A DNA stretch of 61,424 nucleotides from Bacteroidales bacterium (GCA_003141525.1 PLML01000190.1:8165-69588), one strand, 5' to 3'; numbered from the stretch's first letter, positions 24,902-43,114 are shown. Made by a program: numbers and translations. Notes: a model not told the origin generated them from the sequence alone.

Positions 24902-25324
24902 ATGAAAACATTTCGTTCTGCCAAATTGATTGTTTTATTCCTTTTATTTTGTTCAAATGGCGTAAAGGCACAAACCATGCAGACAAAACTCAATCAGGTC
25001 GAGTTGATGAAACAATGGATAGGTTCCTGGAGAACTGAAGGTACATACATATCTTCTGAAATCCACTCTTTTGGAATTGATGGTTTGGAAGGATTTCAAA
25101 AAACACAATTCAAAGATTCAATTGCATCTGAACATAAGTTCATTTATGGCTATGACAAAAAAAGTGATAAATATATATCAGCTTCTATTAGTAAAAATAA
25201 TCCTGGCGTATCACTTATGGTATTTTGGTTCACATCGGAAAATACATGCGAAAGAATTCCATTTGAATCCGCTGAGATAAAATGTTTCAATTATTTTCAA
25301 TTATCTACCTCACATCATATCTGA
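24902..25324 (+). CDS. Small secreted hypothetical protein
   Basis: Signal peptide MKTFRSAKLIVLFLLFCSNGVKA. The last 20 nt overlap the convergent permease gene. No family recognised. Confidence 0.45.
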   Translation: MKTFRSAKLIVLFLLFCSNGVKAQTMQTKLNQVELMKQWIGSWRTEGTYISSEIHSFGIDGLEGFQKTQFKDSIASEHKFIYGYDKKSDKYISASISKNNPGVSLMVFWFTSENTCERIPFESAEIKCFNYFQLSTSHHI

Positions 25325-26696
25325 CAAACAATAGAAACGAAATAAAAAATAATATAGCAGTATAGGCTAGTAAAAGTGCGATATAAATTCCACTCTGGGA
25401 TATTCTTGTAGCGAAGGGAATTAGTTTCTCTGTATAAACGGGTACTTCTCCAATGGGCACTGACTTCCACGAGGTAGAATAATTTTCATTCGGATTGTAC
25501 CAATGCGGACTTTTCGGATCTTTGATATCGATGGCTTTAAACCAGGCCAGAAACTGACTTTGATATGTCTGAAGGTCGTTCCAATTCTTCTTCAGCCTGA
25601 GATATCCACCTCCAAGGTCCACTTCATTCAGATTATCGAATTGAGCAATTGGCGAAAGCAGCGTAAACCTTCTGGTTTTCTCAAACTGGCTAAACATATC
25701 ATTTATATAGCTCAAGGTAAACTTCTTGTCATTCTCCATAAGTTTCATTTGTAAATCGGCACGAAGTTTATGCCTTTCATAAAAGGGATCTCCGCTTGAC
25801 GACCAGCTTCCCGGAGGAGCATTTTTACACAGGTCCTCATATCCCTGCTGTATTTTTGCTTCTATTTCGTTTCGATGTTCAATAGGGAATAGTTTATTTG
25901 CCCAGTAAACAGAAGTGTTTGGAATAATAATGGCAAAAAACAACCAGAAACTTAAGGAGACCAAAAGGCTCACACTGGAATTATGGGAAACAACGGACGA
26001 CAATAACCCAATTGCTGTAATCAGCACGATGAGTAAAAACGTAATTATAACGAAACCAGCTGCTTCCGATAAAAAAACAGTGTTTACCTGTATCTTTCCT
26101 GAAATACCAATTATTAGAATGCTAATGAGGATGCCAAGAATAGTTGTGACTGTAATTACGGATAGTATAGCTGCATATTTGGCCCATAAAATACTACCGC
26201 GTGAAACAGGATTTGAAAGAGCAAGACAAAGGGTATGATCTTCCTTCTCGCCAGAAATGGTATCGAAAGCAAATAACAAGGCCAGAAAGCTCATGCAAAC
26301 TGACACAATGAAGGACCAGTTGAGGCTTTGCACCGGTTTAAGCAAAGGATTTACATTATCGTGCCTTACTTCCATATTGAATACATTATATGCGCTGTAT
26401 ATAAATTGGTTTGGGAACATATTTTCCTTGCAATCGGAAATAATTGAATTGGAACGGGGCTCCAATACATAATTTTTGCGGCGTGTAGCCAGGTCAGATG
26501 CATTTTTGGCTTGTTCTTCCAGGTTTTTCAGATGTTCTTTATGATATACAAAATAGTCGGCTTTTTCTTCGGAATACAACCGGATAAAAGCAATTGACCC
26601 GATTATAAATACCAGCAATACAATTATGAGCGAAACCTGGAACCTGAAGCTGTAAAGCAATTGTTGTATTTCTTTGATAAATAAGGTACTAAACAT
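25305..26696 (-). CDS. Large ABC-2-type permease paralogue (P7; B-type, paralogue of 28292-29713)
   Basis: Predicted layout: TM1, a loop, four clustered TMs, a ~170-aa soluble insert and a final TM. Shares FKAID..DPKSPHWYNP with P5. Ends RYDVR-stop. Confidence 0.8.
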   Translation of the reverse strand: MFSTLFIKEIQQLLYSFRFQVSLIIVLLVFIIGSIAFIRLYSEEKADYFVYHKEHLKNLEEQAKNASDLATRRKNYVLEPRSNSIISDCKENMFPNQFIYSAYNVFNMEVRHDNVNPLLKPVQSLNWSFIVSVCMSFLALLFAFDTISGEKEDHTLCLALSNPVSRGSILWAKYAAILSVITVTTILGILISILIIGISGKIQVNTVFLSEAAGFVIITFLLIVLITAIGLLSSVVSHNSSVSLLVSLSFWLFFAIIIPNTSVYWANKLFPIEHRNEIEAKIQQGYEDLCKNAPPGSWSSSGDPFYERHKLRADLQMKLMENDKKFTLSYINDMFSQFEKTRRFTLLSPIAQFDNLNEVDLGGGYLRLKKNWNDLQTYQSQFLAWFKAIDIKDPKSPHWYNPNENYSTSWKSVPIGEVPVYTEKLIPFATRISQSGIYIALLLAYTAILFFISFLLFVRYDVR

Positions 26697-26714
26697 AGCT
26701 TAATAAATTAAAGG

Positions 26715-28268
26715 TTAGCGTAACTGGTAACGTTTAAATACTATAATGCCGCCTGAAAACAAAAGAATTGAGATTACGATAAATACAGCTATTCCTGATA
26801 ATGCGTCATTTAACGATTTATCAATTCCTGCCGGCTGATCATTAAACTGTGGTACATCCTTCAGGTCGAGCGTATTAAAATGGTCAGGAACTTTATTATT
26901 CCCTTTTATATATTCGGCAGTGCTTACAAATGTTGCAGGATCCTACGGTGTGAAATAGATATATTTTTCGAACAACTTTTTTTCCTTAAGGAATGTTACA
27001 ATGGTTTCGCGGTATCGCCGCATTTCATCCATATAGCGGAGAAAGTCTTTTTCGCTGCTTCGACATAAGCAGGATGCAGCCTGGACGAATATTTCGGAAG
27101 GAGAAAACCAGGAAAGGTTTTGCTCCACTTTTTGCTGCCGGATTAGCCCATCGAGATATTTTTTTTGAATCGGCCATTTACGATCGGCATACAAGAGTCG
27201 AACAGGTTCCTTCCAGGTATTTAACTGCCGGTGGAATTCCATCGTTTCAGATGGGCTTCCATACGTTTCGAAATAACCATCTTCCCCTCCTGTTGCATTC
27301 CACCAGCTTGTTCCTTTCATATTTAAACTCTTCTGGATTGCATCCCACTGTTCACCTTCTTTTTTCCCATATTCTTTATCCAGGTCATCCAGGGAATTCC
27401 TTACATTATCGTACAAATCTATTTTAACAATGCTTTTCGATAAATAGGAACCAGAAACAGGCCACAAGAAAACAAACCAAATCCAGAATAACATGCTCAA
27501 TACGATGGCTGTTGACGAATGCTTTACCATCGCTGAAATAAATGTTCCCGCAAGAATAAAAATAAGCACGTACAGTATGGAAAAAATAAAGAGTATTATT
27601 ACCCTCATCCAGTCGGAAACCTGCAATTTTATATCCGGGGACAGGACTATGAACAAAGACGAAAGCAGGAAGCAAAAAACAAGTATTGGTAAAAGACTGA
27701 TTAATACACCTGTTATTTTTCCAATCAAAAATGAAATCCTGCTGTTATAGTTAGTAAATATCAGCTTTAAGGTACCGTCTTCATGCTCGCGGGTAATCAG
27801 GTCGTAGGAAAATACCAGAGCCAGTAACGACAATACAATAGATAAAACAGTTATAAAATCGAGTGAGAAAAAAGCATTAAGTAAAGGATTATCGCGGGTT
27901 GATGCATGTCCGGTTGGGAAAAAAGGGTATTCCTGAAGGTATATCTTGACCTTGTTTCCTACATTCTGGTTTATGCCTTTGTAAAATATACCAAGAGGTT
28001 CGGGATACTTTACAATTTCAGGTTTCAGGTTTGAATACACCTTTATTTCCTTCCATTCTTTTTCGGATTTCTCTTTATCGACTGCGTAAATACGAAGCTG
28101 GCTTTTATATTCATCAATGCTTACCCTTATGGTAAAAGGTACCAGGATAAGACAAATCAGTACCCCAATAATAAACCTTGCTGAAAAAATATTCAGCAGA
28201 AAGTCTTTTTTTGCAATATGCCAGATCATGATATGATTTTTTTTAGTTAAAGGATTTATTTTAAACAT
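26715..28268 (-). pseudogene. ABC-2-type permease paralogue (P6; A-type, paralogue of 29744-31327) interrupted by an in-frame TAG at 26943-26945
   Basis: The track ORF stops at 26943. The same frame continues for 75 more codons (DPATFVSTAEYIKGNN...GIAVFIVISILLFSGGIIVFKRYQLR-stop at 26715). This restores the last TM and a terminal motif homologous to P4. Confidence 0.75.
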
Positions 28269-28291
28269 CCATGATTAAAGGTTAATGTTCC

Positions 28292-29713
28292 CTACCTCAC
28301 ATCGTACCTGTTAAACATTATCACTGTGGTCCCAAACAACAAAAAAGAATAAAACACCAGAAGCAGAATTTCCGGCAGGGCTTTGGTTAATCGTTGCGGT
28401 ATGGTCATCATCCTTTCTGTATATATAGGTATTTCTTCAAATTTTAGTGGCATGCGAGTGGTGGAACAATCCTCATATGGATTATACCAATGTGGGCTTT
28501 TCGGATCATTTGTATCGATTGCTTTGAACCAGGTTAAAAATCCAGATTGAAAAGTATGAAAGTCATTCCAGTTTTTCTGGAACCTCAGATATCCATTACC
28601 TGTAATTGCCTCACTTATTAGTCCGAACAAAGAGATAGGAGAAATGCAGGTAAATATGGTTACGTGGTTATATTGACCGAACTGCATGTTGTACCATTCA
28701 TCATTAATTTGTTTTTCAGCGTTCATCAGGTTTGTTTGATTTTTTGCCCTGAGTTCATGCTTCGGATAAAAAGGATCACCTCCGTTCATGCTCCAACTAC
28801 CTTCCGGGGCAGCTTTATTGATAGCATCCTGAACCGTTTTTATCTCTGCACTTATTGTTTCTGAATTTTTTATCTTGAATAAATTTTCAGCGGAGAAGAC
28901 TGCAAGATTTGGTGAAAAAATAAGGAATAACAACCACAGGCTAAGGCATAACAACAGACTGATATTAGCCGATCTGGATATTACCGAACAAAATAATCCA
29001 AGAGCTGCAATACAAGCTATGAATAAAATCTGAACGGTAACAAAGATACAAACCTCTAGTAAGAGTGCAGAATCGAACCTGATAGTCCCTGAAATAAGGA
29101 GAATGATTAGTGCAGCTATTATACCAGGCAAAAGCATTAAAAAGCTGCTGATAATGATACTCAGGTACTTTCCCAACAATAATAACGATCGAGGGACATT
29201 ATTGGAAAGGATTAAAGATAATGTCTGCGATTGTTTTTCCCCTGAAACAGAATCGAATGAAAGCAGCAAAATGGCAAAGCTTAATATAAGGGATACTATA
29301 AAGTACCAGTTCAATTCCTGCGAAAGGCTCAGATACGGATTCCCCGACCTGCGGCTGACGGAGTAACCAAATACATTAAAGGCATTGAATTGTATGGTGT
29401 TAGGAATGTACTTTGATTTTGAATCATCAATAAATCCGTTTTTCAGGGGTGGTAAAATGTAATTTTGGTTTTCAACGGCAATTGTCGTTACATTTCTGTT
29501 ACCTGTCCTTATTAAGCCCCGGTTGCGGCCATTTAACAGCTCTTCTCTTGCTTTTCCCGAAAATGTTTCATAGTCATTAATACTGGATTTGAATTGAAAA
29601 ATATAGGCAACGCTGCCAAGGATAAATAATATGAATATTATAACGAAAATAAGCTGTAAACGAAGGCTGAAGATATGTTGCCGGATTTCGTGCAGAATTA
29701 TTGTTTTTATCAT
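28292..29713 (-). CDS. Large ABC-2-type permease paralogue (P5; B-type)
   Basis: Same topology as P7, with roughly 50% identity to it in the C-terminal domain by eye. Ends RYDVR-stop. Confidence 0.8.
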   Translation of the reverse strand: MIKTIILHEIRQHIFSLRLQLIFVIIFILFILGSVAYIFQFKSSINDYETFSGKAREELLNGRNRGLIRTGNRNVTTIAVENQNYILPPLKNGFIDDSKSKYIPNTIQFNAFNVFGYSVSRRSGNPYLSLSQELNWYFIVSLILSFAILLLSFDSVSGEKQSQTLSLILSNNVPRSLLLLGKYLSIIISSFLMLLPGIIAALIILLISGTIRFDSALLLEVCIFVTVQILFIACIAALGLFCSVISRSANISLLLCLSLWLLFLIFSPNLAVFSAENLFKIKNSETISAEIKTVQDAINKAAPEGSWSMNGGDPFYPKHELRAKNQTNLMNAEKQINDEWYNMQFGQYNHVTIFTCISPISLFGLISEAITGNGYLRFQKNWNDFHTFQSGFLTWFKAIDTNDPKSPHWYNPYEDCSTTRMPLKFEEIPIYTERMMTIPQRLTKALPEILLLVFYSFLLFGTTVIMFNRYDVR

Positions 29714-29743
29714 GGTTTTAATCTTATATTTTTCCCATAGGTA

Positions 29744-31327
29744 CTAACGGACATCATATTGAATAAAAGAGAGAAATGAAAGCCAGAACAGAATAATGCC
29801 AATTCCCAACAGTACTCCAATATAAATTAATGAATTGCTGATATCTGTCAATACATTTAAATTCCGGTATTCGAACTGAGGTAAGCCAGACATATCAATA
29901 GGTTTCCATTCAAACACATTGCTGTTAGGGATAATTTTTGTGAGGTACTGCCAGTCTCCATGAAATTTAGTGTTGAATTCACTGAATGTTTTACAAAGTC
30001 CATTTGACTCGTAATTTATCAATTCGTCTGCAGTCATGAACGATCCGGGATCGAGCTGTGTAAAATAGGAAAATGACCCGAACAAGTGATTTTTCAAATA
30101 ATAATTGATCAGCAACTCCCTGTAATTCCGGGTTTGATTTAGAAAGTTGTTGTGACTTTCATAATTAGTGCTGCATAATGCCGATGCAGACTCTTTGAAA
30201 ATTTCTGATGGTGAAAGAAATGAAAGATATTTGGCCAGCTTTTGTTGTTTTTCCAGTTCATGGAGATATTGTTCTCTGAAAGGCCACTTTTTATCTGCAT
30301 ACTGAATTAGTAAAGGTCCGCAATATTCGTTTATTCTTCTTTCTCTTTCCATAAAGTTTTTAGTAGCCCCTCCAATCAGTTTGAATCCATCTTCTCCTCC
30401 CCAGTAATAAGAAGAGCCTGACCAATCGGGTTGCTGTTGCTTTACAGAGAACTCACCAGCTTTATCCTGAAACTCCTTTTCTATGGAATTAATATCATAT
30501 TCGAGATTCTCGGAAGAACCCACCCTGATGAAACTTTTAGCAGAATAGCTGGCGAGATTGGGGATAATGAAAAGAAAAATTACCCACACAATTAAACAAA
30601 TCACAATGCTTGTTGCTGAATGCCTGACTCTTGAGGATATAAAAAGACCTACGATCATGAAAAGAATCAGGAAGACTACACTGAAAAGTATCATTACGCC
30701 TATTCTTATCCATTCGGGACCACTAAATGCTATTGCTTTATGTAATATTATCACAAGCAGGCACAGCCCAAAACTAAAAATAAGCATAGGGATTAAGGTT
30801 AGGAAAGTTCCTAAAAGCTTCCCCATGAGAATAGCAGAACGACTTACCGGGTTTGCCAGCATCATTTTCAGGGTACCTGATTCACGCTCACCCGTACATA
30901 TATCATATGTAAAAAGGAAAGCCATAAGCGACATGATGATAACGAGTACCGATACAAAATCGAAAGTGAAAAAACGATTAAGGAAAGGATTATCTCTGCT
31001 TTCTGCTTTTCCCTCGCTTAGCATAGGTTTATCCCCAAAAAACACTTTAACCCTGTCTCCTACGTTGTAGCTAATACCTCTGGCAAAAATACTTAAGGGA
31101 GTAGGCTTTTTAACAATAACAGGTCGGTATGTAGAATAAGCCTTAGCCTTGTTCTCTTCATCGGCTTTCGCTTTTTCTATTTCATAAACATTCATCTTGC
31201 TTTTGTACTCATTGATGCTGATGACAATAGAAAAAGGTATAAGCAAAAGGCACAGCACAAAACCCGTGATAAACCGTGGCGTAACGATGTTATTTAACCA
31301 TTCTTTTGATGCTATCCGGAGAATCAT
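29744..31327 (-). CDS. Large ABC-2-type permease paralogue (P4; A-type)
   Basis: 527 aa. Motifs ..RDNPFLNRFF.., GERESGTLKMMLANPVSR and the TM cluster are paralogous to P6. Ends QYDVR-stop. It starts 10 nt after the ATPase stop. Confidence 0.8.
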   Translation of the reverse strand: MILRIASKEWLNNIVTPRFITGFVLCLLLIPFSIVISINEYKSKMNVYEIEKAKADEENKAKAYSTYRPVIVKKPTPLSIFARGISYNVGDRVKVFFGDKPMLSEGKAESRDNPFLNRFFTFDFVSVLVIIMSLMAFLFTYDICTGERESGTLKMMLANPVSRSAILMGKLLGTFLTLIPMLIFSFGLCLLVIILHKAIAFSGPEWIRIGVMILFSVVFLILFMIVGLFISSRVRHSATSIVICLIVWVIFLFIIPNLASYSAKSFIRVGSSENLEYDINSIEKEFQDKAGEFSVKQQQPDWSGSSYYWGGEDGFKLIGGATKNFMERERRINEYCGPLLIQYADKKWPFREQYLHELEKQQKLAKYLSFLSPSEIFKESASALCSTNYESHNNFLNQTRNYRELLINYYLKNHLFGSFSYFTQLDPGSFMTADELINYESNGLCKTFSEFNTKFHGDWQYLTKIIPNSNVFEWKPIDMSGLPQFEYRNLNVLTDISNSLIYIGVLLGIGIILFWLSFLSFIQYDVR

Positions 31328-31337
31328 AGCTTAATTT

Positions 31338-32063
31338 TTATGATTTCTCAATTACCATTTCCTGCATATAATTCATGTAAATCTTTTCCAGGTCGTCTTC
31401 CAGAAACTCTTCACGTGTGCGAACCATCACAAGACGGCCTTCCTTCATTATCCCTACACGATCAGCAATGTTTTTGGCGCGGAATATGTCATGGGTGCAC
31501 ATAAAAATAGATTTGCCCTGCCGTTTCAGGTTCACCAGTATCTGCAGCAGTTCAGCTGCCGCTTTGGGATCAAGACCCGCTGTCGGCTCATCTAGAAGTA
31601 TATTTGGCGCATCCTTTATTATGGCTATTGTCAGTCCGACTTTTTGCCGCATCCCTTTCGAAAAGGTTTTAAGCTTTTTCTCGAAAGCTTCCTCCTGTAA
31701 TCCAACTTCCCGCATTCGCATATAATAGTCTTCCGTGGTGAGATTGGGTTTTCCTCCCAGCTTGGCAAAAAAGTCGAGATTCTGCCGGGCGGTAAAATTC
31801 CCATAGAGCATTACATTCTCACTCACGTAGGAAACATATTTCTTCGATTCCAGAGGCTCCCTGGTCACATCGATACCGTTTATCAGAGCCTTGCCTCCTG
31901 TCGGCTCAATAAAGTTCAGAAAAAGGTTAATAGTGGTAGTTTTCCCGGCGCCGTTGGCTCCAAGGAGGAAAAATATTTCACCTTCCTTAATTTCGAGGTT
32001 TAAAGCGTCCAGCGCTAATTGCTGGTCCTCGTACCGTTTTGTTAAATCGATTGCTTGAAGCAT
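31338..32063 (-). CDS. ABC transporter ATP-binding protein (copy 2)
   Basis: Walker A GANGAGKTT, signature-like FSKGMRQK, Walker B ILLDEP and H-loop CTHD. 241 aa, differing at 8 residues from 34877-35602. Confidence 0.95.
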   Translation of the reverse strand: MLQAIDLTKRYEDQQLALDALNLEIKEGEIFFLLGANGAGKTTTINLFLNFIEPTGGKALINGIDVTREPLESKKYVSYVSENVMLYGNFTARQNLDFFAKLGGKPNLTTEDYYMRMREVGLQEEAFEKKLKTFSKGMRQKVGLTIAIIKDAPNILLDEPTAGLDPKAAAELLQILVNLKRQGKSIFMCTHDIFRAKNIADRVGIMKEGRLVMVRTREEFLEDDLEKIYMNYMQEMVIEKS

Positions 32064-32139
32064 ATTATTAAATGTATAATGTTATCATAAGACCTTCAGT
32101 GTTTTAAAAACATTGTAGACCATAAAATTAGGTTAAGAA

Positions 32140-33561
32140 TCACACTTTCATTCTATTAAATTGTCTTATTAAAGTCAAATACAATAGCGCATTAAATACC
32201 AACAATACAATACAATAGGATAGTGTAGCAGAAAATCTGCCGGAAACATTTTCTTCTCTAAAACTGAATTCAGGTCTGTCTTTTATATCAATGTATTTAT
32301 TGACATCATACATTACATCTGTTTTCTTTATTTTCGCAACTCTTGCTTCTACGAATTGCCACAAGGATACTTCGAAATTTTTCTTAATGTCTTTAAAATA
32401 TGCTTCAGCATGAATACCACTCCCTGCCATATCAGAAACTGCGTAAGAGAAATCTGCAACGGGTGAAATACATGAAATTTCTTTTGTTAAGGCAATTTGT
32501 CTGTCAACTTTACTAAAAAAATCTACACTTATATTTTCACTTTTAGCACTCTGAATGGCATTCGCCTTATCCCATGCATTGGCTATCTCCTTTTGAAAAG
32601 CAACATACTCGTTTTTTAAACCTATGTTGTTTTCAAGTTTTGCCAAAAGTAGTTTTTCATCTTTAGCAGACTTTATAATATTCAAAAGGTCAGGATATTT
32701 TTCATATACTTCCTTGCATAGATTCCTTCCTAAATCATCACGTTCAATGCCTTTAATAATCTTCACTTCTTTTTCAAATTTATTTATTGAAGGAACTCTA
32801 TATAACTGTGATGCCACCCATGGGCTAAGATTAGGAATGGTCAGCGTAAAAACTGCCCAGATAAACAAGCTTAGCAAAACCGATGAAGAGGATGACCCTG
32901 TAAATGCTGAGCAAATCATGCCCACTAAGTAAAATATTGAGATGTAAAATACTGATAGTAGAAAAATAAGACCCAATGCCATCAGATCATTACTATCTAA
33001 TGATATACTATTATCCATCAAAATATAAATAACTCCTATTGCCAATGATATAATGAGCGAGATAATAATACTGAGCATACCTCCAAGAAACTTTGTAATA
33101 GTAAGTTTGACTCTCGAAACCTGATTTGAAAGGATAAGTCGCAATGTGCCGTTTTCGCTTTCTCCCGAAAAAGAATTATGAGAAAACAAAATTGCAATAA
33201 GGCTGTAAATAACAGTAATTATAAGAACAAAATCTATAGGTGGAAACAATACATTAAAGGAATTATTGGTAAAAGTATTCACTTCCATATCGCTGGAGAT
33301 GCCTGCAGCAAATAGCCTTAGTTTGGCAGGGGGACGTTGAATATCAAGCATGTCACCTATTCTGTTTTCATGAGCATATTTATCAATAAATTCCTTTTGT
33401 GTCAGCAGCCGTAGATTGTAATCGTTTCTTTCGGTTTTGTAATCATTCAACAGAACCGATTCCGTTATAAGCAGAGTAAACATGCACAATATGGTGAACC
33501 AGAGAAACCGTTTATCGAAAATTTTATCGGCAAGTTCCTTTATCAATAATTCTTTAAACAT
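32140..33561 (-). CDS. Large ABC-2-type permease paralogue (P3)
   Basis: Same overall topology, with GESENGTLRLILSN after TM2. Its divergent C-terminus ends NRMKV-stop and lacks the YDVR motif. Confidence 0.75.
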   Translation of the reverse strand: MFKELLIKELADKIFDKRFLWFTILCMFTLLITESVLLNDYKTERNDYNLRLLTQKEFIDKYAHENRIGDMLDIQRPPAKLRLFAAGISSDMEVNTFTNNSFNVLFPPIDFVLIITVIYSLIAILFSHNSFSGESENGTLRLILSNQVSRVKLTITKFLGGMLSIIISLIISLAIGVIYILMDNSISLDSNDLMALGLIFLLSVFYISIFYLVGMICSAFTGSSSSSVLLSLFIWAVFTLTIPNLSPWVASQLYRVPSINKFEKEVKIIKGIERDDLGRNLCKEVYEKYPDLLNIIKSAKDEKLLLAKLENNIGLKNEYVAFQKEIANAWDKANAIQSAKSENISVDFFSKVDRQIALTKEISCISPVADFSYAVSDMAGSGIHAEAYFKDIKKNFEVSLWQFVEARVAKIKKTDVMYDVNKYIDIKDRPEFSFREENVSGRFSATLSYCIVLLVFNALLYLTLIRQFNRMKV

Positions 33562-35602: not shown

Positions 35603-35664
35603 AATTATTTGGTTTAAAGTTCAATGTTCAAAGTTGTTTCTGTTTGCCGAAAATTACCCTTCAC

Positions 35665-37143
35665 TCACCTCACATCATATTTAATAAACTGAAATACACT
35701 AACTGCAAAAAAGAATATGGAATAAAAGCAAATAAAAAGAAGGTCGATCCAATTGGCACCTAATGATGATATCATAGTGGGATAATTGTACGTGTTCAAT
35801 GTAGGTACATGAATGCTATTCCAATCCACCTTGCCAAATATACCTTTAGAAACATTGAATCCTATGTGATATTCTTTATAATACTTACGGAGCTTACTAT
35901 AAAACTCTGATTCAGTAAAACTGGAAAACTGTCTGGCATTGTATTCGATATTCGATAACTCTATTAAGCCCGTATTGGTCAAATCACTTATTAAATAGGT
36001 ATAGCAACCAATTGGACTTATTCTTGAAATGTTTTTCGATATATTTTGCTGAACAAGCTGTTGATTATGATAGTCCTTTTCAATTATACCAATGGCATTA
36101 ATTTCCATTTCATCATATTTCCTTTTTACATCTACTATCATTCCGTCATACTCTACAAGTGCGGCTTTTACATTTGGATCATCCCCCATATTGAAAAAAT
36201 CTAATTTTTCTGCATTCATTCCCCTTTCACTCATAATGCTTTTCATAAGTTCTCCACTGGTTCTATCAGATTCTGCCCTTATTTCATCACGTTTCATTGC
36301 TTTTTGCTTGTTTACCACCTCTTCTGTTTTAATCGGATAAATTATCTGGGCGATCATGGGACTGACTTTGGGAATTATTATGGCTATCAGCACCCATACC
36401 AATAGTGACGCAGTAATAGAAGCACCGGAGTTTCTGGTTTTAATTGACAGTAAAATTCCTATATTGAAAAGGATAAAAAGAAAAAGCAGACTGATCATCA
36501 TAATTACAAGAAACGGGATCAAATAGCTTACCGATAAAATTGGTACTGAGGTTGTTAATGCAAGTAAAACCAATCCGGAAATGACACCAACCAAAAATGA
36601 AATCAGAAATACCGTATAGCTGCCGGCAATTTTTGCAAAAATAATTTTCCACCGTGGCACAGCATTTGCCACTATAAGCCTGAGCGTGCCGTTTTCCTTT
36701 TCGCCGGAAATGCTGTTAAAAGTAACCATAAAGGCCAACAACGAAAGAATGATTGTGATAATAAAGTAAAAGTCGATTTTACCAAAAAGCAAGGCTACCG
36801 GGTTGTTTATTCCATAGTCATTTTCTTCATGCCATACACCGCGGGAATCGGTGGTGATTTTATTCGGAAGGTAAACAGATAGTCCACTTGAAAAAATGCT
36901 GAGAGGAGAAGGCGGAATGTATCCTTCGGCAACAAATTCCATTCCCTTATTGTCTTTGTTGCGTTCCTCATACATCTGTTTTGCATCCTTATAGGCAGCT
37001 CTGTTTTGCTCATACTCCTTTGAAGATACATATAGGCCAAGAGGAATGAGCAATATACAAATTAACAGGACAAATAACGAACGTGTGTTTGTGATAATTT
37101 CCTGTATCTCTTTGATTATTAAGTGTCTGAGCATAGGTTTCAT
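35665..37143 (-). CDS. Large ABC-2-type permease paralogue (P1)
   Basis: 492 aa, GEKENGTLRLIVANAVPR, a TM cluster, a ~190-aa soluble insert and a final TM. Ends KYDVR-stop. Confidence 0.75.
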   Translation of the reverse strand: MKPMLRHLIIKEIQEIITNTRSLFVLLICILLIPLGLYVSSKEYEQNRAAYKDAKQMYEERNKDNKGMEFVAEGYIPPSPLSIFSSGLSVYLPNKITTDSRGVWHEENDYGINNPVALLFGKIDFYFIITIILSLLAFMVTFNSISGEKENGTLRLIVANAVPRWKIIFAKIAGSYTVFLISFLVGVISGLVLLALTTSVPILSVSYLIPFLVIMMISLLFLFILFNIGILLSIKTRNSGASITASLLVWVLIAIIIPKVSPMIAQIIYPIKTEEVVNKQKAMKRDEIRAESDRTSGELMKSIMSERGMNAEKLDFFNMGDDPNVKAALVEYDGMIVDVKRKYDEMEINAIGIIEKDYHNQQLVQQNISKNISRISPIGCYTYLISDLTNTGLIELSNIEYNARQFSSFTESEFYSKLRKYYKEYHIGFNVSKGIFGKVDWNSIHVPTLNTYNYPTMISSLGANWIDLLFICFYSIFFFAVSVFQFIKYDVR

Positions 37144-37188
37144 TTTTAATTTTTAATTTTTCACTCCTCACTCCTCACTCTTCTATAT

Positions 37189-38655
37189 CTACCGCTTACT
37201 CAACCTGATCCCAAACACCACGATTCCACCCAAAACCCCTATTAATAACAGGATAAGCATAATAGTGCCAAATACAGGTGTACGTGCTTCCACCTGGATC
37301 CGGACTGTTTTGTCCTCGGTTTCAACCGTACGGTTGTTGGCAGTGGCTTGCGTTTTGATTTTTACTTCCTGTGCACCGACATTAACATCATCGGGAGGAA
37401 GAATATTAAGTATTACTTCGTGTTCTTTTCCGGGAGCTAATGTAGCAATCACATCCGGTACAATAACAGTCTTCCAGTTAAGCGGGTTTTCGGTAGTTAT
37501 TTTAATGTTATCGAGTACTCTCGTTCCGTCATTCATCACAGTAATTTTCATCGAAAGACTGTCGCCGGTTTTAATCTCGTGGTAAAGCGAGGGGGCTTTT
37601 ACGGTGATCCGGCCAACACCCTTGGGTATAAGTTCCAGCTTGATTTTCCCCGCCTGAATCTGATCGATTTCTTTTTGGGTCATAATGCGGGTATCCCCCA
37701 TTTTGTTGTATTCTGCATCGTTCAGAATAATTACATAGAAATCCAGGGGTTTGTCAATCTTTATGTCATCGTCTTCGCGGTCGGGTAAATAAGCTTTCAG
37801 GGAAAGTTTACGGATATTCACTCCCTGGTTGAATTTCAGCTGTGACAGGCGGGCGTTATTGTCAGCGTCAAAAAGATCGTATGATACCTGCCGGGGCAGA
37901 TTAACCACCATGAACCTGTATACATCGTCGGAAGAAGAGAACCGTTCCAGGCTTAGATCATACGAAGCGGATGAACCCAAATCAGTTTCCTGGGCAAACT
38001 GCGATGAGTTGATGGCTACCATATTCGCAGAAGCATCCTTTTCTAGATAAATATTCTTTGTATCTTTCTTACCATTGTAGTTTAACACAACCTGCACGCT
38101 TTCGGCGTCGCGCAACAGATTAAAATCGGCCATTGCCGTAGCGCCGTTGTCGATTGACGGAATGCGTATTTCATAAGGCGACCCAATGATTGTGTTATCA
38201 GCAATATTGTTGATGGATACAAAAATATTATACACCTTGGCTGTTCTCATTTCAGGGGTAAATACATCAAAATGTTGTTCGAACTGCTTTATGTAATCCT
38301 GGTTTCCTTCTGTAGAACTGCGCAGGGTCAATTTAACTCGTTTTTCAGCTTTATTGTTTTGATATTTCACAGCTTTTTCGATAATGATGTACGATTGTTG
38401 TGAAATTAGCTTCAGTATAAGTTTCTGGTAATCGACCTCTTTTGATAAGGATTCATTTTTAGAGTTATTGAACTCGGCCAGGGATATGGCTTTCTGATCG
38501 TAAAGTTCTTTATCATTATCATATTTCTGTTTTGCAATTTCGTATGCGGCGCGAGCCTTTTTCAGATCGAGGGCTATACCTGCCTGGTCTTCCTGGGAGT
38601 GTCCGGGAATTTGAAAAAGAAGAAAGCAAATAATAAAAAAGATAAGCCGTTTCAT
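37189..38655 (-). CDS. Atypical periplasmic adaptor-like protein: signal peptide, MFP-like coiled-coil hairpin, beta-rich (Ig/NEW3/CARDB-like) region, C-terminal TM anchor
   Basis: MKRLIFFIICFLLFQIPGHS. LDLKKARAAYEIAKQKYDNDKELYDQKAISLAEFNNSKNE resembles the HlyD-family alpha-hairpin. APGKEHEVILNILPPDDVNVGAQEVKIKTQA is beta-sandwich-like. The tail is TPVFGTIMLILLLIGVLGGIVVFGIRLSKR. Confidence 0.65.
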   Translation of the reverse strand: MKRLIFFIICFLLFQIPGHSQEDQAGIALDLKKARAAYEIAKQKYDNDKELYDQKAISLAEFNNSKNESLSKEVDYQKLILKLISQQSYIIIEKAVKYQNNKAEKRVKLTLRSSTEGNQDYIKQFEQHFDVFTPEMRTAKVYNIFVSINNIADNTIIGSPYEIRIPSIDNGATAMADFNLLRDAESVQVVLNYNGKKDTKNIYLEKDASANMVAINSSQFAQETDLGSSASYDLSLERFSSSDDVYRFMVVNLPRQVSYDLFDADNNARLSQLKFNQGVNIRKLSLKAYLPDREDDDIKIDKPLDFYVIILNDAEYNKMGDTRIMTQKEIDQIQAGKIKLELIPKGVGRITVKAPSLYHEIKTGDSLSMKITVMNDGTRVLDNIKITTENPLNWKTVIVPDVIATLAPGKEHEVILNILPPDDVNVGAQEVKIKTQATANNRTVETEDKTVRIQVEARTPVFGTIMLILLLIGVLGGIVVFGIRLSKR

Positions 38656-38708
38656 TATTTTTAAGATTTAATTATTCTTATAAACTCTGACAAGGGTTTG
38701 AATTCCTG

Positions 38709-40250
38709 TCAGCGTTGAGATTGTTGCGAAACCACATAACTCTTATTATTCTCAAAATCCCACATCGTCTTCCGTTTTAAATTATTTACTGAAAGCTGAT
38801 AGCCGATAAATGCATCAAGATAATCTAACTGAATGGTTGCAAGTCTTTCCTGTTCTATTGTGAGGTCCTGATTAGAAATATCACCATTTTCGAACCGCAT
38901 TTGGCTTATCTTGTAAGTTTGCCGGGCCAGATCAAGGTTTTTTTGGTGAATAGTTAGTTGTTCTGACGATTCGTTTACTGACCGTATAATTTCACGTACT
39001 TCCCTGCGGATAGTCACTTCCTGGTTCTCTTTATACAGTTCTTTCGACTGGAGATTTAACTTTGCCTGCTTCACTTTCGAAGAGCCTCTTCCCCAATCAC
39101 AAATCGGCAATGTAAACGTGAGAGCAATGCCCCGGTTGGGTGGGCGATTTCGGATATTCTCAAAAGACGATTGGAATAATTGTGTAGTCGTTCCTGCCCC
39201 AAGCGTACTGATACCCGTTAAGTCGTAATATGCTGAAATATTCCCCTGAAATTCCCGTACACGCTTCGCCCTGTCAACTTCAATTTTCAGAAGGTTAATG
39301 TCCATCTCTGTTTCCTTTATTTCAAGCCTGTTCTTCAAGGCTTCATCAGTGGCTTTTTGTTCATCGATCAGAATAGCCTTATATTCAAGGTTAGTTACAA
39401 TCCCTATTATACGATCGAGATCAAGACCTATCAGTTGCTTAAACTGGTCTTCCTCGTTTTGCATCTGGTTAATGGCCTTGAGATAACCGGCTTTATTCTG
39501 TGCTACTGAAACTTCGGCACTCATCACATCGCCTTGAGCCATTCGTCCTCCTTCTAATTTTAACCTGGCTATACGGAATGATTCTTCTGAGTTTTTAAGT
39601 TTCTCCAGGGAGATCTCCACTTGTTTCTTACTTCGATATAATGCATAAAATTCCTGGGTAACGTCATACACAATGTCCATTTGTGCGCGGGTATAGGAAT
39701 GTTCCGATTTCTGGTAGTTATATTCGGCTTCGCGTAAGTTCTCCTTCAATTTGTTTTTAGTGAATATTGGCTGGGTAAAATATAACGAAAACTCACTATT
39801 AAAGATGTCTGTTTTTAATGTACTATTGTCGCTTGCCAGCACTGTAGTAAAGTTCCTGCGAAATGGGTTTGCGGATAAGGATAAATTTCCACCGGTTGGC
39901 AATACATAAGTAAAACTTAAGTTTCCACCAACCTGCATAGATCCGTTAGAATTGTAAACAGGTAAACCATTAGCCTGTTCTATTTCTGTCACCGATTCTT
40001 GCCATAAGGGTGCATCTAAGTTAAGATCAAGCCTCGGTTTAAACATTGCTTTATAATAGCTGAAATAGTATTGCATAGCTTTTCGATCAATCTCAAAGGA
40101 ACGAGTTGAATAACTTTTACCTAAAGCAATCTCAATGGCACTGGAACATGAAAGATAAAGCGTATCCTGAGCCTTTACAATCTTTGAAATAAAAACTATT
40201 CCAAAGATCAGAAATGTCGAACTTTTCACTATCAAATTCCTTAATGGCAT
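38709..40250 (-). CDS. TolC-like outer membrane efflux protein (OEP family)
   Basis: 513 aa with a signal peptide and two long coiled-coil-rich repeats typical of the OEP family (..AEYNYQKSEHSYTRAQMDIVYDV.., ..LDLARQTYKISQMRFENGDISNQDL..). Confidence 0.85.
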   Translation of the reverse strand: MPLRNLIVKSSTFLIFGIVFISKIVKAQDTLYLSCSSAIEIALGKSYSTRSFEIDRKAMQYYFSYYKAMFKPRLDLNLDAPLWQESVTEIEQANGLPVYNSNGSMQVGGNLSFTYVLPTGGNLSLSANPFRRNFTTVLASDNSTLKTDIFNSEFSLYFTQPIFTKNKLKENLREAEYNYQKSEHSYTRAQMDIVYDVTQEFYALYRSKKQVEISLEKLKNSEESFRIARLKLEGGRMAQGDVMSAEVSVAQNKAGYLKAINQMQNEEDQFKQLIGLDLDRIIGIVTNLEYKAILIDEQKATDEALKNRLEIKETEMDINLLKIEVDRAKRVREFQGNISAYYDLTGISTLGAGTTTQLFQSSFENIRNRPPNRGIALTFTLPICDWGRGSSKVKQAKLNLQSKELYKENQEVTIRREVREIIRSVNESSEQLTIHQKNLDLARQTYKISQMRFENGDISNQDLTIEQERLATIQLDYLDAFIGYQLSVNNLKRKTMWDFENNKSYVVSQQSQR

Positions 40251-40272
40251 AAAAGGTCTTTACAAACTTATT

Positions 40273-40288
40273 ATCAATACCTGTGCCA
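40273..40288 (-). promoter_or_regulatory. Candidate sigma-54 promoter (-24 TGGCAC, N5, -12 TTGAT) for the TolC/ABC operon
   Basis: The minus strand reads TGGCAC-AGGTA-TTGAT, a 9/10 match to TGGCAC-N5-TTGC with the -12 C replaced by A. It lies 22 nt upstream of the ATG at 40250. An NtrC-type activator is encoded divergently. Confidence 0.45.
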
Positions 40289-40351
40289 AAAGAATCAAAT
40301 TGCTTATCTACAATATATTACAATGCCAAGATTAGATTTTATGGACACTAT

Positions 40352-40415
40352 ATTTGGGTAACTAATATAAAATATGAGTAATAGTTTACCCAAATTAAAT
40401 TTGGTTTATTTGGGG
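40352..40415. promoter_or_regulatory. Cluster of ATTTGG(G) half-sites, including a perfect 10-bp inverted repeat; candidate activator binding sites
   Basis: ATTTGGGTAA (40352-40361) and its exact reverse complement TTACCCAAAT (40386-40395) are 24 nt apart. CCAAATT-A-AATTTGG is a perfect palindrome (40389-40403). A further ATTTGGG lies at 40408-40414. The centre is ~85 bp upstream of the -24 element. Confidence 0.4.
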
Positions 40416-40440
40416 AAGAAAAATTAAATTTTTACTTTTG
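40409..40440 (+). promoter_or_regulatory. Candidate Bacteroidetes-type primary promoter (-33 TTTG, -7 TACTTTTG) for the kinase/activator genes
   Basis: TTTG at 40409-40412 and TAnnTTTG at 40433-40440 are 20 nt apart. The ATG follows 22 nt downstream at 40462. Confidence 0.35.
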
Positions 40441-40461
40441 AATACCTTATCATAATCTGTT

Positions 40462-41700
40462 ATGCTTTTCAGACAAAGTAAAAATGACCTAAACCAGGAT
40501 TTCAACAGGTTTTTATCGGAAATGAACGAGTCGTTTTCTATTATAACTGACCTGGAACAGCTTAAAGATAATTTTTCGTCCAGGATAAAGGAATTGTTGA
40601 AAACCGATCATATCTATATTCTAATGCTAAATCCAGATTTAAACAGGTATATAACGGTTGAAAATATTACCAGCAATTCAAAATACGATGAACTTCTATA
40701 TTTTAACACTTCAGATAAATTAGTCTTTTGGCTTTCGGTAAATAAAACTTTTCTTAATATAAGTCAAGATCCACAGGTATTTGCATTTTTTACCAGACGA
40801 GAACAGGAATTGATCGAACTGAGAAGTATTTCGTTAATATATCCGTTTATAGTAATGAATCAGGTACGTGGAATGGTCTGTATTGGCAGAAAAGAAAACA
40901 ATGTTCCATTTGATAAGAATGAGTTACAATATTTAAAAATATTTCTCGATCAGGCGGGTTTTGCCTTCGAGAATGCATTGCTTTACCAGTCACAGAAAGA
41001 GCGTACCAGGAAAATGTACCGGGCCGACCGTCTGGCTACCCTCGGGGAACTATCGGCGGGTGCTGCCCATGAAATCCGCAATCCGCTTACTTCTATCCGC
41101 AGTTCTATCCAGTTTTTAAAAAGAAAGTTGAGTGATCCGGCGGATATAGAAATGTCAAACGATCTTATTTCCGAAGTCGATCGAATTAATGAGATTATCG
41201 AAGGGATGTTATCCTTTGCCAAGCCACAGCCTTTGAAGAAGGAAAATACACAATTAAAGACTATTCTTGCACAAACCGTTCAATTGGTCTCAAATACCGC
41301 GCGAAAAAAAGAAATTGATATTTGCCTTAATTATCAGGCAGGCAGGGACGATATATTTGCAGATCCCAGCCAGTTAAAACAGTTGTTTCTGAATATTATT
41401 ATGAATTCTATTCAGGCCATTGAAAATATACCTGGCAAAATTGAAATTAATGTTATTTTCTCTGAAGGGGAAAAAAAATATACTCCCGTATATTTAATTG
41501 AGTTTATTGATAATGGGGAAGGGATATCTAATGAGAACATAGATAAGATTTTCGATCCTTTTTATACAACTAAAAATGAAGGAACCGGCCTGGGCTTGTC
41601 TATTTCATATGGTATTATTAATCAACATGACGGTGACATCGAATTTTTCAGTGAACCTGGCAAAGGAACCAGGGTAAAAATCAGAATTCCTTTGAAATAA
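40462..41700 (+). CDS. Soluble (no TM) sensor histidine kinase with an N-terminal GAF-like region
   Basis: H-box LSAGAAHEIRNPLTSI, N-box IIMNSIQAIE, G-boxes DNGEGIS and GTGLGLSISYGII. No hydrophobic segment. Confidence 0.9.
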   Translation: MLFRQSKNDLNQDFNRFLSEMNESFSIITDLEQLKDNFSSRIKELLKTDHIYILMLNPDLNRYITVENITSNSKYDELLYFNTSDKLVFWLSVNKTFLNISQDPQVFAFFTRREQELIELRSISLIYPFIVMNQVRGMVCIGRKENNVPFDKNELQYLKIFLDQAGFAFENALLYQSQKERTRKMYRADRLATLGELSAGAAHEIRNPLTSIRSSIQFLKRKLSDPADIEMSNDLISEVDRINEIIEGMLSFAKPQPLKKENTQLKTILAQTVQLVSNTARKKEIDICLNYQAGRDDIFADPSQLKQLFLNIIMNSIQAIENIPGKIEINVIFSEGEKKYTPVYLIEFIDNGEGISNENIDKIFDPFYTTKNEGTGLGLSISYGIINQHDGDIEFFSEPGKGTRVKIRIPLK

Positions 41701-41737
41701 TTTGTCAGGCGAAGATAATAATGTGCCAAATCATCAG

Positions 41738-43114
41738 ATGCTTATGAAGAATCCACAGATATTAATTGTTGACGACGAAGAAAAAATCAGAAAGGTACTT
41801 ACCCGATTGCTTGAAGACGAAGATTATCGTGTGAAATCAGTTGAAAACGGGCAAAAAGCCATAGCAATTTTACACTCTTATAAACCCGACGTTGTATTAA
41901 TGGATCAAAATATGCCCGGCCTTAATGGGATTGAGGCACTGGTAACCATAAAAGAGAAAAATCCATTCTTAACTGTTATTATCATTACTGCCCACGGTGA
42001 GGTCTCTCTTGCTGTAGATGCCATAAAGAAAGGAGCATATGATTATCTCGAAAAACCTTTCGACAATGATAAACTCCTTTTATTAATAAAACGTGCAATA
42101 GACCATCAACGGCTTACAGTTGAGATATCAAACCTTAAACGAAAGCTTGGCGAACAGAAGTCATTCGAATCGATTATTGGTACTGATGAAAAAATGAAAA
42201 AAGTTATTGAACAGGCCAAATGTGTAGCCGATACAGATACTACGGTGCTTATTCAGGGCGAAAGCGGAGTGGGAAAAGAAATAATTGCGAATGCCATACA
42301 TCAGACAAGCCGGCGAAAAGAAGGACCATTTGTCGTCGTAAACTGTGGCGCAATTCCATTAAGTTTAATTGAGAGCGAATTGTTTGGCCACGAAAAAGGG
42401 TCGTTCACGGATGCTAAAGAAACAAAGCCCGGAAAATTTGAACAGGCCAATGGTGGTACTTTGTTTCTTGATGAACTGGGAGAATTGCCGCTCGATGCAC
42501 AGGTAAAACTGTTGCGGGTTTTGGAAGATAAAAAAATAACAAGAGTAGGAGGTATAAAACCTATTCCTGTGAATGTCAGGATTCTGTCGGCTACAAACAA
42601 TAACCTGGAGGAGAGAGTCCAAAAGGGCAGTTTTCGACTCGATCTCTATTACCGCTTAAATATCTTCCCGATTCAAATTCCCCCTTTGCGTGAAAGAAGA
42701 GCTGATATACCTTTGTTTATTGAGTATTTCATTAATATGTTCAATTGCGAATTAGATCTTCATGTTAAAAACATGTCCGGAGAGGCTGTTGACCAGTTAC
42801 TAAATTACAAATGGCCGGGAAATATCAGGGATTTGCAGAATGCCATACAAAGCGCCATGATTCTATGCAAGGAAGGAACAATAACCCGCGAACATCTGCC
42901 GATGAGAATTAAAGGATATCCTTTACTCGACGGAAATAAGCCTGAATTTGATTCCGGGTTGGATGAAAACCTGAAATCAATTAATTCGAAACTTGAAAAA
43001 GAACTAATAATTGAAGCCCTGAACAAGTGCAATTACAACCGCACTGAAGCTGCAAATCGTTTAAAAATCAGCAGGAAGACTTTATTTAATAAAATGAAAC
43101 AATACAATTTGTAA
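41738..43114 (+). CDS. NtrC-family sigma-54-dependent response regulator (REC, AAA+, Fis-type HTH)
   Basis: ILIVDDEE..VLMDQNMPGLNG, Walker A GESGVGKE, GHEKGSFTDA (a GAFTGA-loop variant), LFLDELGE, and C-terminal NRTEAANRLKISRKTLFNKMK. I prefer the ATG at 41738 to the track's TTG at 41702. Confidence 0.9.
   Translation: MLMKNPQILIVDDEEKIRKVLTRLLEDEDYRVKSVENGQKAIAILHSYKPDVVLMDQNMPGLNGIEALVTIKEKNPFLTVIIITAHGEVSLAVDAIKKGAYDYLEKPFDNDKLLLLIKRAIDHQRLTVEISNLKRKLGEQKSFESIIGTDEKMKKVIEQAKCVADTDTTVLIQGESGVGKEIIANAIHQTSRRKEGPFVVVNCGAIPLSLIESELFGHEKGSFTDAKETKPGKFEQANGGTLFLDELGELPLDAQVKLLRVLEDKKITRVGGIKPIPVNVRILSATNNNLEERVQKGSFRLDLYYRLNIFPIQIPPLRERRADIPLFIEYFINMFNCELDLHVKNMSGEAVDQLLNYKWPGNIRDLQNAIQSAMILCKEGTITREHLPMRIKGYPLLDGNKPEFDSGLDENLKSINSKLEKELIIEALNKCNYNRTEAANRLKISRKTLFNKMKQYNL

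Follow-up and report, generated by a model that had tools for sequence, protein, structure and literature searches.

The locus described here lies in a 61,424-nt stretch of DNA from a Bacteroidales bacterium (GCA_003141525.1 PLML01000190.1:8165-69588), which we refer to as the window and whose positions we count from its first letter. Its core is an array of eleven genes, all on the minus strand, which encode a TolC-family outer membrane protein (OMP), a protein with a NEW3 domain (NEW3 in the following), seven permeases of the ABC-2 (ATP-binding cassette) type (P1–P7) and two ABC ATPases (A1 and A2). According to a map of the open reading frames (ORFs) and profile searches of the window proteins, these genes follow each other in the order OMP-NEW3-P1-A1-P2-P3-A2-P4-P5-P6-P7, with intergenic gaps of 10–76 nt; the gap between P6 and P7 measures 18 nt if a TAG codon in P6 is read through, and 246 nt if it is not. 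A histidine kinase (HK) and a response regulator (RR) are encoded on the plus strand, divergent from the array and at a distance of 211 nt from it. An earlier reading of this DNA, made from the sequence alone (the original prediction), had proposed this closely spaced, co-directional run of eleven genes together with the identity of each; the ORFs are indeed found where it placed them, and the profile searches agree gene by gene. To judge from related genomes, a widespread cassette is present here in enlarged form, and we consider it reasonably probable that the locus encodes an ABC efflux machine that spans the envelope, can be induced and belongs to an uncharacterized family. Its features are the following:

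41702–43114, plus strand: RR, an NtrC-type sigma-54 enhancer-binding response regulator (Response_reg; Sigma54_activat, 243 bits; AAA_lid_14; HTH_8)
40462–41700, plus strand: HK, a soluble histidine kinase with GAF, HisKA and HATPase_c domains (Pfam matches) and the H-box AAHEIRNPL
40375–40392, no strand assigned: palindrome TGAGTAATAGTTTACCCA, a candidate upstream activator sequence, with one mismatch to TGGGTAA-N4-TTACCCA and 87–104 nt upstream of the −24 element
40274–40288, minus strand: sigma-54 type −24/−12 element TGGCACaggtaTTGA, with the start codon of OMP 38 nt downstream
38709–40250, minus strand: OMP, a TolC-family outer membrane factor of 513 aa with a signal peptide (OEP, 149 bits in two stretches)
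37189–38655, minus strand: NEW3, a NEW3-domain protein of 488 aa and candidate periplasmic adaptor (NPCBM_assoc match at residues 362–436)
35665–37143, minus strand: P1, a solo permease of the S-type, 492 aa (ABC2_membrane_2, 109 bits), with S-G-E-x-E-x-G-T-L after its second transmembrane (TM) segment
34877–35602, minus strand: A1, an ABC ATPase of 241 aa with a single nucleotide-binding domain (NBD; ABC_tran, 95 bits)
33577–34827, minus strand: P2, first member of the P2/P3 (X/Y) permease pair, 416 aa (ABC2_membrane_2, 118 bits)
32140–33561, minus strand: P3, second member of the P2/P3 (X/Y) permease pair, 473 aa (ABC2_membrane_2, 106 bits)
31338–32063, minus strand: A2, an ABC ATPase of 241 aa with a single NBD (ABC_tran, 95 bits)
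29744–31327, minus strand: P4, an A-type permease of 527 aa with a DUF3526 periplasmic insert (Pfam matches)
28292–29713, minus strand: P5, a B-type permease of 473 aa (ABC2_membrane_2, 91 bits)
26715–28268, minus strand: P6, an A-type permease of 517 aa if intact, with a TAG at codon 442 (26943–26945)
25305–26696, minus strand: P7, a B-type permease of 463 aa and the final gene of the array (ABC2_membrane_2, 117 bits)

The most distinctive component of the locus is the NEW3 protein, and we therefore used it as a probe for synteny. Its homologs number in the hundreds, are mostly at least 60% identical to it and go by the names ‘NEW3 domain-containing’ or ‘hypothetical’; a full-library profile search with NEW3 yielded 240 clusters (50% identity) at E ≤ 1e-30. 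For the comparison of neighborhoods, 80 loci were sampled from a scan of species-representative genomes and their ORFs annotated with the window proteins. They stem from Bacteroidales and from metagenome-assembled genomes (MAGs) labeled Latescibacterota, KSB1, Gemmatimonadales, Chlorobiota and Glassbacteria; cultured carriers include Parabacteroides goldsteinii, gordonii, segnis, faecis and leei. The minimal form of the cassette is found in cultured Parabacteroides species. As ORF starts were set at the first ATG and some loci are consequently under-counted, the parser counts given in this section are lower bounds.

Across these genomes, a core of seven genes recurs, in which RR and HK point away from OMP, NEW3, one ATPase, one A-type and one B-type permease (RR< HK< OMP> NEW3> ATPase> A-type> B-type>), with an optional S-type permease gene that a subset of related loci carries between NEW3 and the ATPase. 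The gene immediately before NEW3 is OMP in at least 59 of 66 loci; at least 55 of 58 contain an ABC-2 permease, and RR is found in at least 45 of the 47 related loci that extend far enough upstream. Among complete loci, the arrangement ATPase-A-B is the commonest (at least 22 of 43), and an added solo permease or a second A-B or X-Y pair is rarer; X-Y pairs resembling P2/P3 recur in four loci (L016, L019, L065 and L082). The search for conserved synteny that the original prediction had suggested thus finds the same neighborhood in dozens of genomes from several phyla, which places the arrangement beyond chance and makes the cassette, as far as gene neighborhoods tell, a sizeable uncharacterized family and not a one-off. 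The prediction that the architecture matches no system that can be named has likewise held up, in that neither profile nor literature searches turned up a characterized system or a paper on the cassette; the source databases annotate its proteins in generic terms.

No other array in this sample is as large as that of the window (S, ATPase, X, Y, ATPase, A, B, A, B), and none of the others includes two ATPases. Genomes with NEW3 proteins 85–94% identical to that of the window have three to six permease genes in differing orders, from which it follows that the permease content turns over fast. Number and order of these genes also vary among L005, L014 and L007–L013, where the identity of NEW3 is 82–94%. 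The array therefore reads as a lineage-specific expansion of the conserved unit, and the comparison suggests that permease modules are rapidly gained, lost and left to decay. Accordingly, the 7:2 ratio of permeases to ATPases, on which the original prediction had laid weight, is present in the window and yet is a local expansion, not a defining feature of the family, whose conserved unit is one ATPase with one A/B pair. Sequence identity to distant loci is graded in the same sense: it is highest in the ATPase (about 80%), followed by NEW3 and RR (about 60%; 55–65% for NEW3 across phyla), OMP (about 50%) and the permeases (25–55%). Channel, adaptor and motor thus act as a conserved chassis, to which the permeases are the variable modules. 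The genes beyond the cassette are unrelated between lineages; in P. goldsteinii, for instance, they are the housekeeping genes GH92, PFOR and GlnRS, and a comparison of the flanks in the window, in Parabacteroides and elsewhere found no biosynthetic genes conserved beside the cassette.

On the side of the chassis, OMP scores 149 bits against the OEP model (Pfam cut-off 22) and contains both OEP repeats; a lipobox cysteine was not found in it. As it reaches only 86.8 bits against TIGR01844, where the cut-off is 225, it is best regarded as a divergent member of the TolC family. In the two ATPases, the Walker A (GANGAGKT) and Walker B motifs are intact, ILLDEP is present, and both share the unusual signature variant FSKGM. 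They are 97% identical as proteins and 86.8% identical as DNA, and the similarity ends at the gene borders. A recent duplication or gene conversion was considered and rejected, given the DNA identity of 86.8%, the third-position differences and the confinement of the similarity to the genes; the pattern is that of an old duplication under strong purifying selection. Since 96 nucleotide differences, most of them in third positions, result in just 8 amino-acid changes, both copies are, by this measure, functional. Furthermore, A2 has an identity of 80–87% to ATPases encoded at loci from other families and phyla, and of 97% to the ATPase of locus L012.

The seven permeases all score 91–118 bits against ABC2_membrane_2 (cut-off 27.2), in agreement with the proposal that these large ORFs are ABC-2 permeases, and by sequence as well as by fold their closest relative is NosY. 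It is the sole significant sequence relative among solved structures (E = 8e-10 for P4 and 1e-5 for P7). An AlphaFold2 model of P4 (pLDDT 87, pTM 0.80) has a NosY-type fold with six TM segments, and its best fold matches are NosY chains (E = 1e-5, TM-score 0.62–0.70 on the target); ABCG, ABCA and PmtCD are far weaker matches. In a crude hydropathy scan, the permeases share a layout of TM1, a loop of 60–104 aa, about four clustered TM segments, an insert of 135–230 aa and a last TM segment. This is the layout that had been predicted, save for the first loop, which is shorter than the 90–130 aa claimed. Given the usual six-TM topology of ABC-2 proteins, both long segments would be periplasmic. 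The insert of P4 (residues 272–490) is modeled mostly as long helices, one of them with 47 residues, plus a small β-hairpin.

On the level of individual permeases, P4 and P6 pass the cut-off for DUF3526 (25 bits), of which P3 falls short with a weak match of 19.8 bits; P3 also has a weak match to PmtD, again below cut-off. The pairwise paralogy that had been noticed between P4 and P6 and between P5 and P7 is borne out by identities of 36% and 40%, respectively, compared with 20–32% for all other pairs, and the motif FKAID..DPKSPHWYNP does occur in both P5 and P7. Two further motifs are widely kept. The segment S/T-G/R-E-x-E-x-G-T-L, which follows TM2 in all seven permeases and shows a conservation of 90% or more across 50 B-type and 56 A-type sequences, is presumably the one that couples to the NBD, as we would expect from ABC-2 transporters in general. 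The other, D-x2-D-x2-S-P-H, is a periplasmic motif that 90% or more of 50 B-type sequences, drawn from many genomes, retain; it is located at residues 390–398 of P7 (about 25503–25529, minus strand) and 400–408 of P5, and might form a ligand- or metal-binding site.

The putative adaptor, NEW3, begins with a signal peptide (residues 1–20, MKRLIFFIICFLLFQIPGHSQ) without a lipobox and ends in a strongly hydrophobic TM helix (residues 461–487) followed by RLSKR. In its AlphaFold2 model, an α-hairpin of two 29-residue helices (25–53 and 59–87) is followed by a stack of immunoglobulin (Ig)-like β-sandwiches, about four as counted by eye from the strand pattern, and then by the TM helix. At the tip of the hairpin, L51, A56 and S58 are invariant in the family alignment, and a gapless alignment places N47, L51 and S58 on R128, L132 and S139 of AcrA, as well as on the R-x3-L-x6-S of a Bacteroides membrane fusion protein (MFP; 4l8j). 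In such proteins, RLS is reported to be the hairpin-tip motif for docking of the adaptor to the outer membrane factor (OMF), with R119, L123 and S130 in MexA (PMC4446572). The predicted build of NEW3 is thus that of an adaptor-like, C-terminally anchored stalk, which would carry an MFP-like hairpin some 450 residues away from its anchor.

As a family, however, NEW3 proteins are not MFPs, because none of 32 members matches any Pfam MFP model. The description of NEW3 as a non-HlyD adaptor in the original prediction therefore stands as far as family membership is concerned, and is to be amended in that the hairpin tip aligns in register with the RLS motif of MFPs. In Pfam, the only profile matches are of the NPCBM_assoc, DUF7507 and CARDB types; NCBIfam CzcB/HlyD models match residues 13–82 at 19–22 bits, far from their cut-offs of 319–393. 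A fold search with the NEW3 model was uninformative, returning generic Ig arrays only (integrins, ciliary proteins, α-2-macroglobulins), and a precomputed PF25893 label on a few homologs, which was not reproduced with the Pfam copy searched, was not used. In one protein of the representative library (P0303, 892 aa), an ABC2_membrane_2 permease is fused to a full NEW3 adaptor with a coherent membrane topology, in which the signal-peptide-like segment forms an extra TM segment with a short, Arg-containing cytoplasmic loop. This fusion hints at an association of permease and adaptor, although it could also be a gene-calling artefact. Another library protein, P0232 (797 aa), is a longer variant of the adaptor with additional β-sandwich repeats.

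RR is called as a 458-aa protein in other assemblies, a length that results if translation begins, as is probable, at the ATG 12 codons into the ORF. Its Walker A motif reads GESGVGK, and its L1 loop, GSFTDA, is a variant of GAFTGA; receiver, sigma-54 AAA+ and HTH_8 domains as well as the HisKA/HATPase domains of the partner kinase all score above their cut-offs, as expected for the NtrC family. HK, which is kept beside RR in related loci, has a GAF match that is weak in the window and stronger in the Parabacteroides ortholog. As a hydropathy scan predicts no TM segment in it, HK is presumed to be a cytoplasmic sensor.

Between the two divergent transcription units lie a promoter-like element and a palindrome. 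The former reads TGGCAC-N5-TTGA; the pattern TGGYAY-N5-TTGM is matched at only three sites of the 61-kb window, of which this is one. With a loose consensus pattern, a sigma-54 counterpart is found upstream of OMP in 41 of 70 loci, where chance would give about one by a rough estimate, and the Parabacteroides loci have a canonical promoter (TGGCACGCCATTTGC). The palindrome is the best match to TGGGTAA-N4-TTACCCA across the whole window, and additional half-sites are located at 40352–40362 and 40408–40417. In related genomes, no 8-mer of the HK/OMP intergenic regions is more widely shared than the half-site TTACCCAA (22 of 42 non-redundant regions), and full TGGGTAA-N4-TTACCCA palindromes occur in Bacteroidales and in one Latescibacterota MAG. 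The conserved synteny, the promoter and the upstream palindrome lead us to regard the two-component pair as dedicated to the putative array operon and as probably acting through sigma-54; that this pair and the TolC-family gene belong with the ABC genes had already been proposed, and both prove to be conserved partners.

Internal promoters that would split the array find no support, the other sigma-54-like matches being antisense inside P1 or distant (14907). The match inside P1 is a perfect sigma-54 consensus (TGGCACagcatTTGC, 36655–36669, plus strand), which may be due to chance, since three matches in the window compare with 1.3 expected. Likewise, the number of terminator-like sites in the array equals the chance expectation, and none of them lies in an intergenic gap.

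The TAG in P6, which the original prediction had pointed out, is present in the sequence and in frame, and it is not a recoding feature. Read through codon 442, P6 has 517 aa and closes with the expected last TM helix; in other assemblies it is called as a protein of 504 or 517 aa. Two assemblies of the same population (L085 and L086) carry a 1554-nt P6 gene that is identical except for CAG in place of TAG, a single C→T change, and the TAG is for this reason private to the window sequence. The otherwise identical intact gene in two assemblies also led us to reject recoding or programmed readthrough. From these comparisons, the TAG is either a nonsense mutation specific to the strain or an error in the sequence. 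Some relatives have P6/P7-type genes in fragments, as L005 and L014 do for the P6-type gene. In the window itself, the gene for a SusC-like TonB-dependent receptor is divided among three overlapping frames in the region 51820–55146 (plus strand), with CarbopepD_reg_2 and the start of Plug in 51820–52278 and the remainder of Plug in 52269–52637; these fragments are followed by a 471-aa ORF without a Pfam match (52665–54080) and by a SusD-like ORF that begins in the middle of its profile (54055–55146). The split SusC/SusD ORFs are either pseudogenes or the result of indel errors in the assembly. Given the fragmented P6 genes and the split SusC, both gene decay and assembly error are possible sources of the TAG.

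Taken together, we favor the view that the locus encodes an efflux machine, and propose the following model, in which co-transcription, all contacts between proteins, their stoichiometry, the direction of transport and the substrate are what we infer. HK would sense a cytoplasmic signal and phosphorylate RR, which would bind the TGGGTAA-N4-TTACCCA palindrome and activate the sigma-54 promoter just upstream of the TolC-family gene, such that all eleven genes are expressed as one transcript. A dimer of the 241-aa ATPase would then power a heterodimer of NosY-like permeases, composed of an A-type subunit with its tall helical DUF3526 insert and a B-type subunit; the X/Y and perhaps also S permease dimers might be driven in the same way. 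Held in the membrane by its C-terminal TM helix, NEW3 would raise its N-terminal hairpin on the Ig-like stack toward the TolC-family channel, and oligomers of NEW3 would bridge to the trimer of this channel and so complete a path to the outside. One chassis, consisting of the channel, the adaptor and two near-identical ATPases, would thereby serve the modules P2/P3, P4/P5 and P6/P7 as well as the solo permease P1. These alternative modules probably broaden or change the substrate range, and the substrates themselves would most likely be toxic amphipathic or hydrophobic compounds or peptides, taken up from the membrane or the periplasm. More tentatively, and with the balance tipping slightly to the other side, we entertain the idea that NEW3 represents a second, structurally unrelated class of adaptors, which links NosY-type ABC-2 transporters to TolC-family channels in a chassis shared by rapidly exchanged permease heterodimers, and that it is these heterodimers that determine the substrate specificity.

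The coupling to TolC in this model is suggested by synteny, by the predicted topology and by a single gene fusion (P0303), and the substrate is one that we infer. A number of observations weigh against the model. For NEW3, the domain arrangement is unreliable because the model has a pLDDT of 77 and a pTM of 0.44; the similarity of its hairpin to MFPs in a PDB profile search is weak (E = 0.076 for 4l8j and 0.5–0.85 for AcrA), the R of the RLS motif is replaced by N, and no Pfam MFP or HlyD model is matched at E ≤ 1 by any of the 32 family members. On the side of regulation, the −12 element in the window is TTGA where the consensus is TTGC, and a weight matrix that finds an element above the 99th percentile of shuffled sequence upstream of OMP in 54 of 70 loci gives a somewhat inflated count, because it was built from sites in the very loci that it scored and is thus partly circular. 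Finally, a role other than efflux is possible because NosFY, the closest solved relative, is a mechanotransducer for a periplasmic partner and no efflux pump.

This last point leads to an alternative in which the locus works like NosDFY, with ATP-driven movements of the periplasmic domains and NEW3 serving to load, remodel or release a periplasmic or outer-membrane client and not to pump a small molecule, and with the TolC-family protein as the exit or anchor of this client. NosY being the only significant relative in sequence and fold among solved structures, databases naming the permeases ‘multi-copper enzyme maturation permease’ and NEW3 having the place that NosD has with NosFY, that of a large partner in the periplasm, are all consistent with such a role. 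The conserved unit, however, includes no NosD, NosL, NosZ or other candidate client enzyme; its conserved partner is instead a TolC-family channel, and a hairpin with a conserved L-x6-S points to docking with an OMF, which makes a mechanotransducer quite improbable in our view. We are somewhat less skeptical, though still inclined to consider it unlikely, that the locus is a dedicated TolC-dependent exporter for an envelope component made by the cell itself (a lipid, glycolipid, lipoprotein or polymer), whose permease pairs handle different endogenous cargoes. DevBCA-HgdD, which exports a glycolipid, offers a comparison. Type V/ABC-2 folds such as ABCA, ABCG and PmtCD, the weaker fold matches found here, often move lipids or amphipaths, tall periplasmic domains could shield a hydrophobic cargo, and the cassette is strongly conserved across phyla (ATPase about 80%, NEW3 about 60%). 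What speaks against such an exporter is that no biosynthetic genes adjoin the cassette in a conserved manner, the neighbors varying by genome, that a dedicated, inducible sigma-54 pair is unlike constitutive control, and that the fast turnover of permeases and their broken copies fit an accessory role better than a core role in the envelope.

The same turnover would suit an arms race, in which diversifying and quickly exchanged permease modules follow their target. The cassette could accordingly confer immunity to, and export of, antimicrobial peptides or bacteriocins in the style of LanFEG or PmtABCD, with each pair handling a different peptide, be it a competitor’s or the cell’s own. The ATPases do score against models for lantibiotic protection, bacteriocin export and PmtA, all below cut-off, and there are the weak PmtD match of P3 and the presence of PmtCD among the fold matches. 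These matches, however, are far below the family cut-offs and generic for DrrA-like NBDs, and no genes for a peptide precursor or its modification are linked to the locus. Moreover, peptide immunity is a substrate-specific sub-case of the efflux model, and as a separate explanation we give it very little credence.

Efflux thus remains our preferred reading, and several consequences would follow from it. Tripartite efflux pumps are central to the intrinsic tolerance of Gram-negative bacteria to drugs, bile and toxins, and those that have been characterized all use, to our knowledge, adaptors of the HlyD family. If the model is correct, the cassette adds a new adaptor architecture, and NosY-type ABC-2 transporters join the TolC-coupled class. 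The cassette is widespread in anaerobic Bacteroidales, gut Parabacteroides included, and with permease pairs that vary in number while the chassis is conserved, it offers a natural experiment in how the specificity of ABC transporters diversifies. Since strains in culture have the minimal form, the hypothesis can be tested directly, and the defined circuit of GAF kinase, NtrC-type activator, palindrome and sigma-54 promoter gives experimental access to the inducing signal and, through it, to the substrate.

Beyond RR, a 488-aa protein with inosine-uridine nucleoside hydrolase and FmdE domains is encoded at 44927–46393 (plus strand), and it has the same position in other assemblies of the same population. 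Downstream of the array, there are two ORFs on the plus strand without a significant Pfam match, both of which are called as genes in other assemblies: one of 140 aa (24902–25324), which shares 20 nt with the 3′ end of P7 on the other strand, and one of 276 aa (23948–24778), which has a weak match to RHS repeats. Farther away, a BatD-containing gene (5821–7641, minus strand) and its co-directional neighbors (5047–12324) probably form a Bat-type operon, adjoined by genes for a molybdopterin oxidoreductase and a 4Fe-4S protein at 1129–4481; such surroundings are ordinary for a Bacteroidales chromosome. Rfam and tRNA scans of the window found nothing.

Among known systems, NosDFY, which acts in the maturation of N2O reductase (PDB 7O0Y and others), contains the closest solved relative of the permease TM core, and like the cassette it has a separate single-NBD ATPase and a dedicated periplasmic partner. 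NosY, however, is a homodimer of 276-aa subunits that lack the 135–230 aa insert and the long first loop of the cassette permeases, for which we propose A/B heterodimers, and where NosDFY has NosD, NosL and NosZ, the cassette has a TolC-family gene and a sigma-54 pair; a NosD β-helix partner or nos genes are found neither in the window locus nor in the Parabacteroides locus. GldAFG, likewise, combines a Bacteroidota ABC-2 permease with a DrrA-like ATPase, and the cassette proteins match GldF and GldA weakly, staying well below the equivalog cut-offs (25–37 bits against 288.5 for GldF, 150 against 402.6 for GldA). Profile searches revealed no GldG-type gene in the locus, and GldAFG, unlike the cassette, comes without a linked TolC or sigma-54 pair.

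In the proposed mode of action, the cassette is comparable to TolC-coupled transporters. YbhGFSR is also an ABC-2 transporter with two different permease subunits that is encoded together with a periplasmic adaptor. Its adaptor YbhG is a canonical HlyD-family MFP, YbhF has two NBDs, and YbhR and YbhS belong to ABC2_membrane_3; in E. coli, the gene for TolC is not linked to ybhGFSR, whose regulator is the TetR-type CecR. The cassette, by contrast, has a single-NBD ATPase, a NEW3-type adaptor, the OMF within the operon and sigma-54 control. YbhGFSR is reported to export drugs (PMC7190983; PMC8277102). With AcrA, MacA and MexA, that is the HlyD/MFP adaptors, NEW3 shares a predicted hairpin, at whose tip L-x6-S aligns in the register of RLS, and a gene position between the OMF and the transporter. 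The canonical MFP chain, however, folds back to form its lipoyl, β-barrel and membrane-proximal domains, whereas NEW3 is predicted to be linear, from hairpin to Ig-like stack to C-terminal TM helix.

As read from its genes, the cassette also resembles MacAB-TolC, in that it combines an ATPase, a permease with large periplasmic domains, a hairpin adaptor and a TolC-family duct, and a substrate from the periplasm or the membrane is probable for it. Still, the parts are of a different make. The permease of MacAB-TolC is of the FtsX/MacB type, with four TM segments and a fused NBD, whereas those of the cassette are ABC-2/NosY-like, with six TM segments and a separate NBD, and none of the seven matches FtsX or MacB_PCD at E ≤ 0.01. 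The adaptor of MacAB-TolC has lipoyl, β-barrel and membrane-proximal domains and an N-terminal anchor; that of the cassette has none of these and carries its TM helix at the C-terminus. Finally, the cassette differs in having several alternative permease pairs within one operon. It thus works, on this reading, like MacAB-TolC and YbhGFSR and yet belongs to neither, as it has no FtsX/MacB permease, no HlyD adaptor and no tandem-NBD ATPase. Relative to the tripartite ABC efflux pumps, what would be new is the architecture of its adaptor and its modular complement of permeases.

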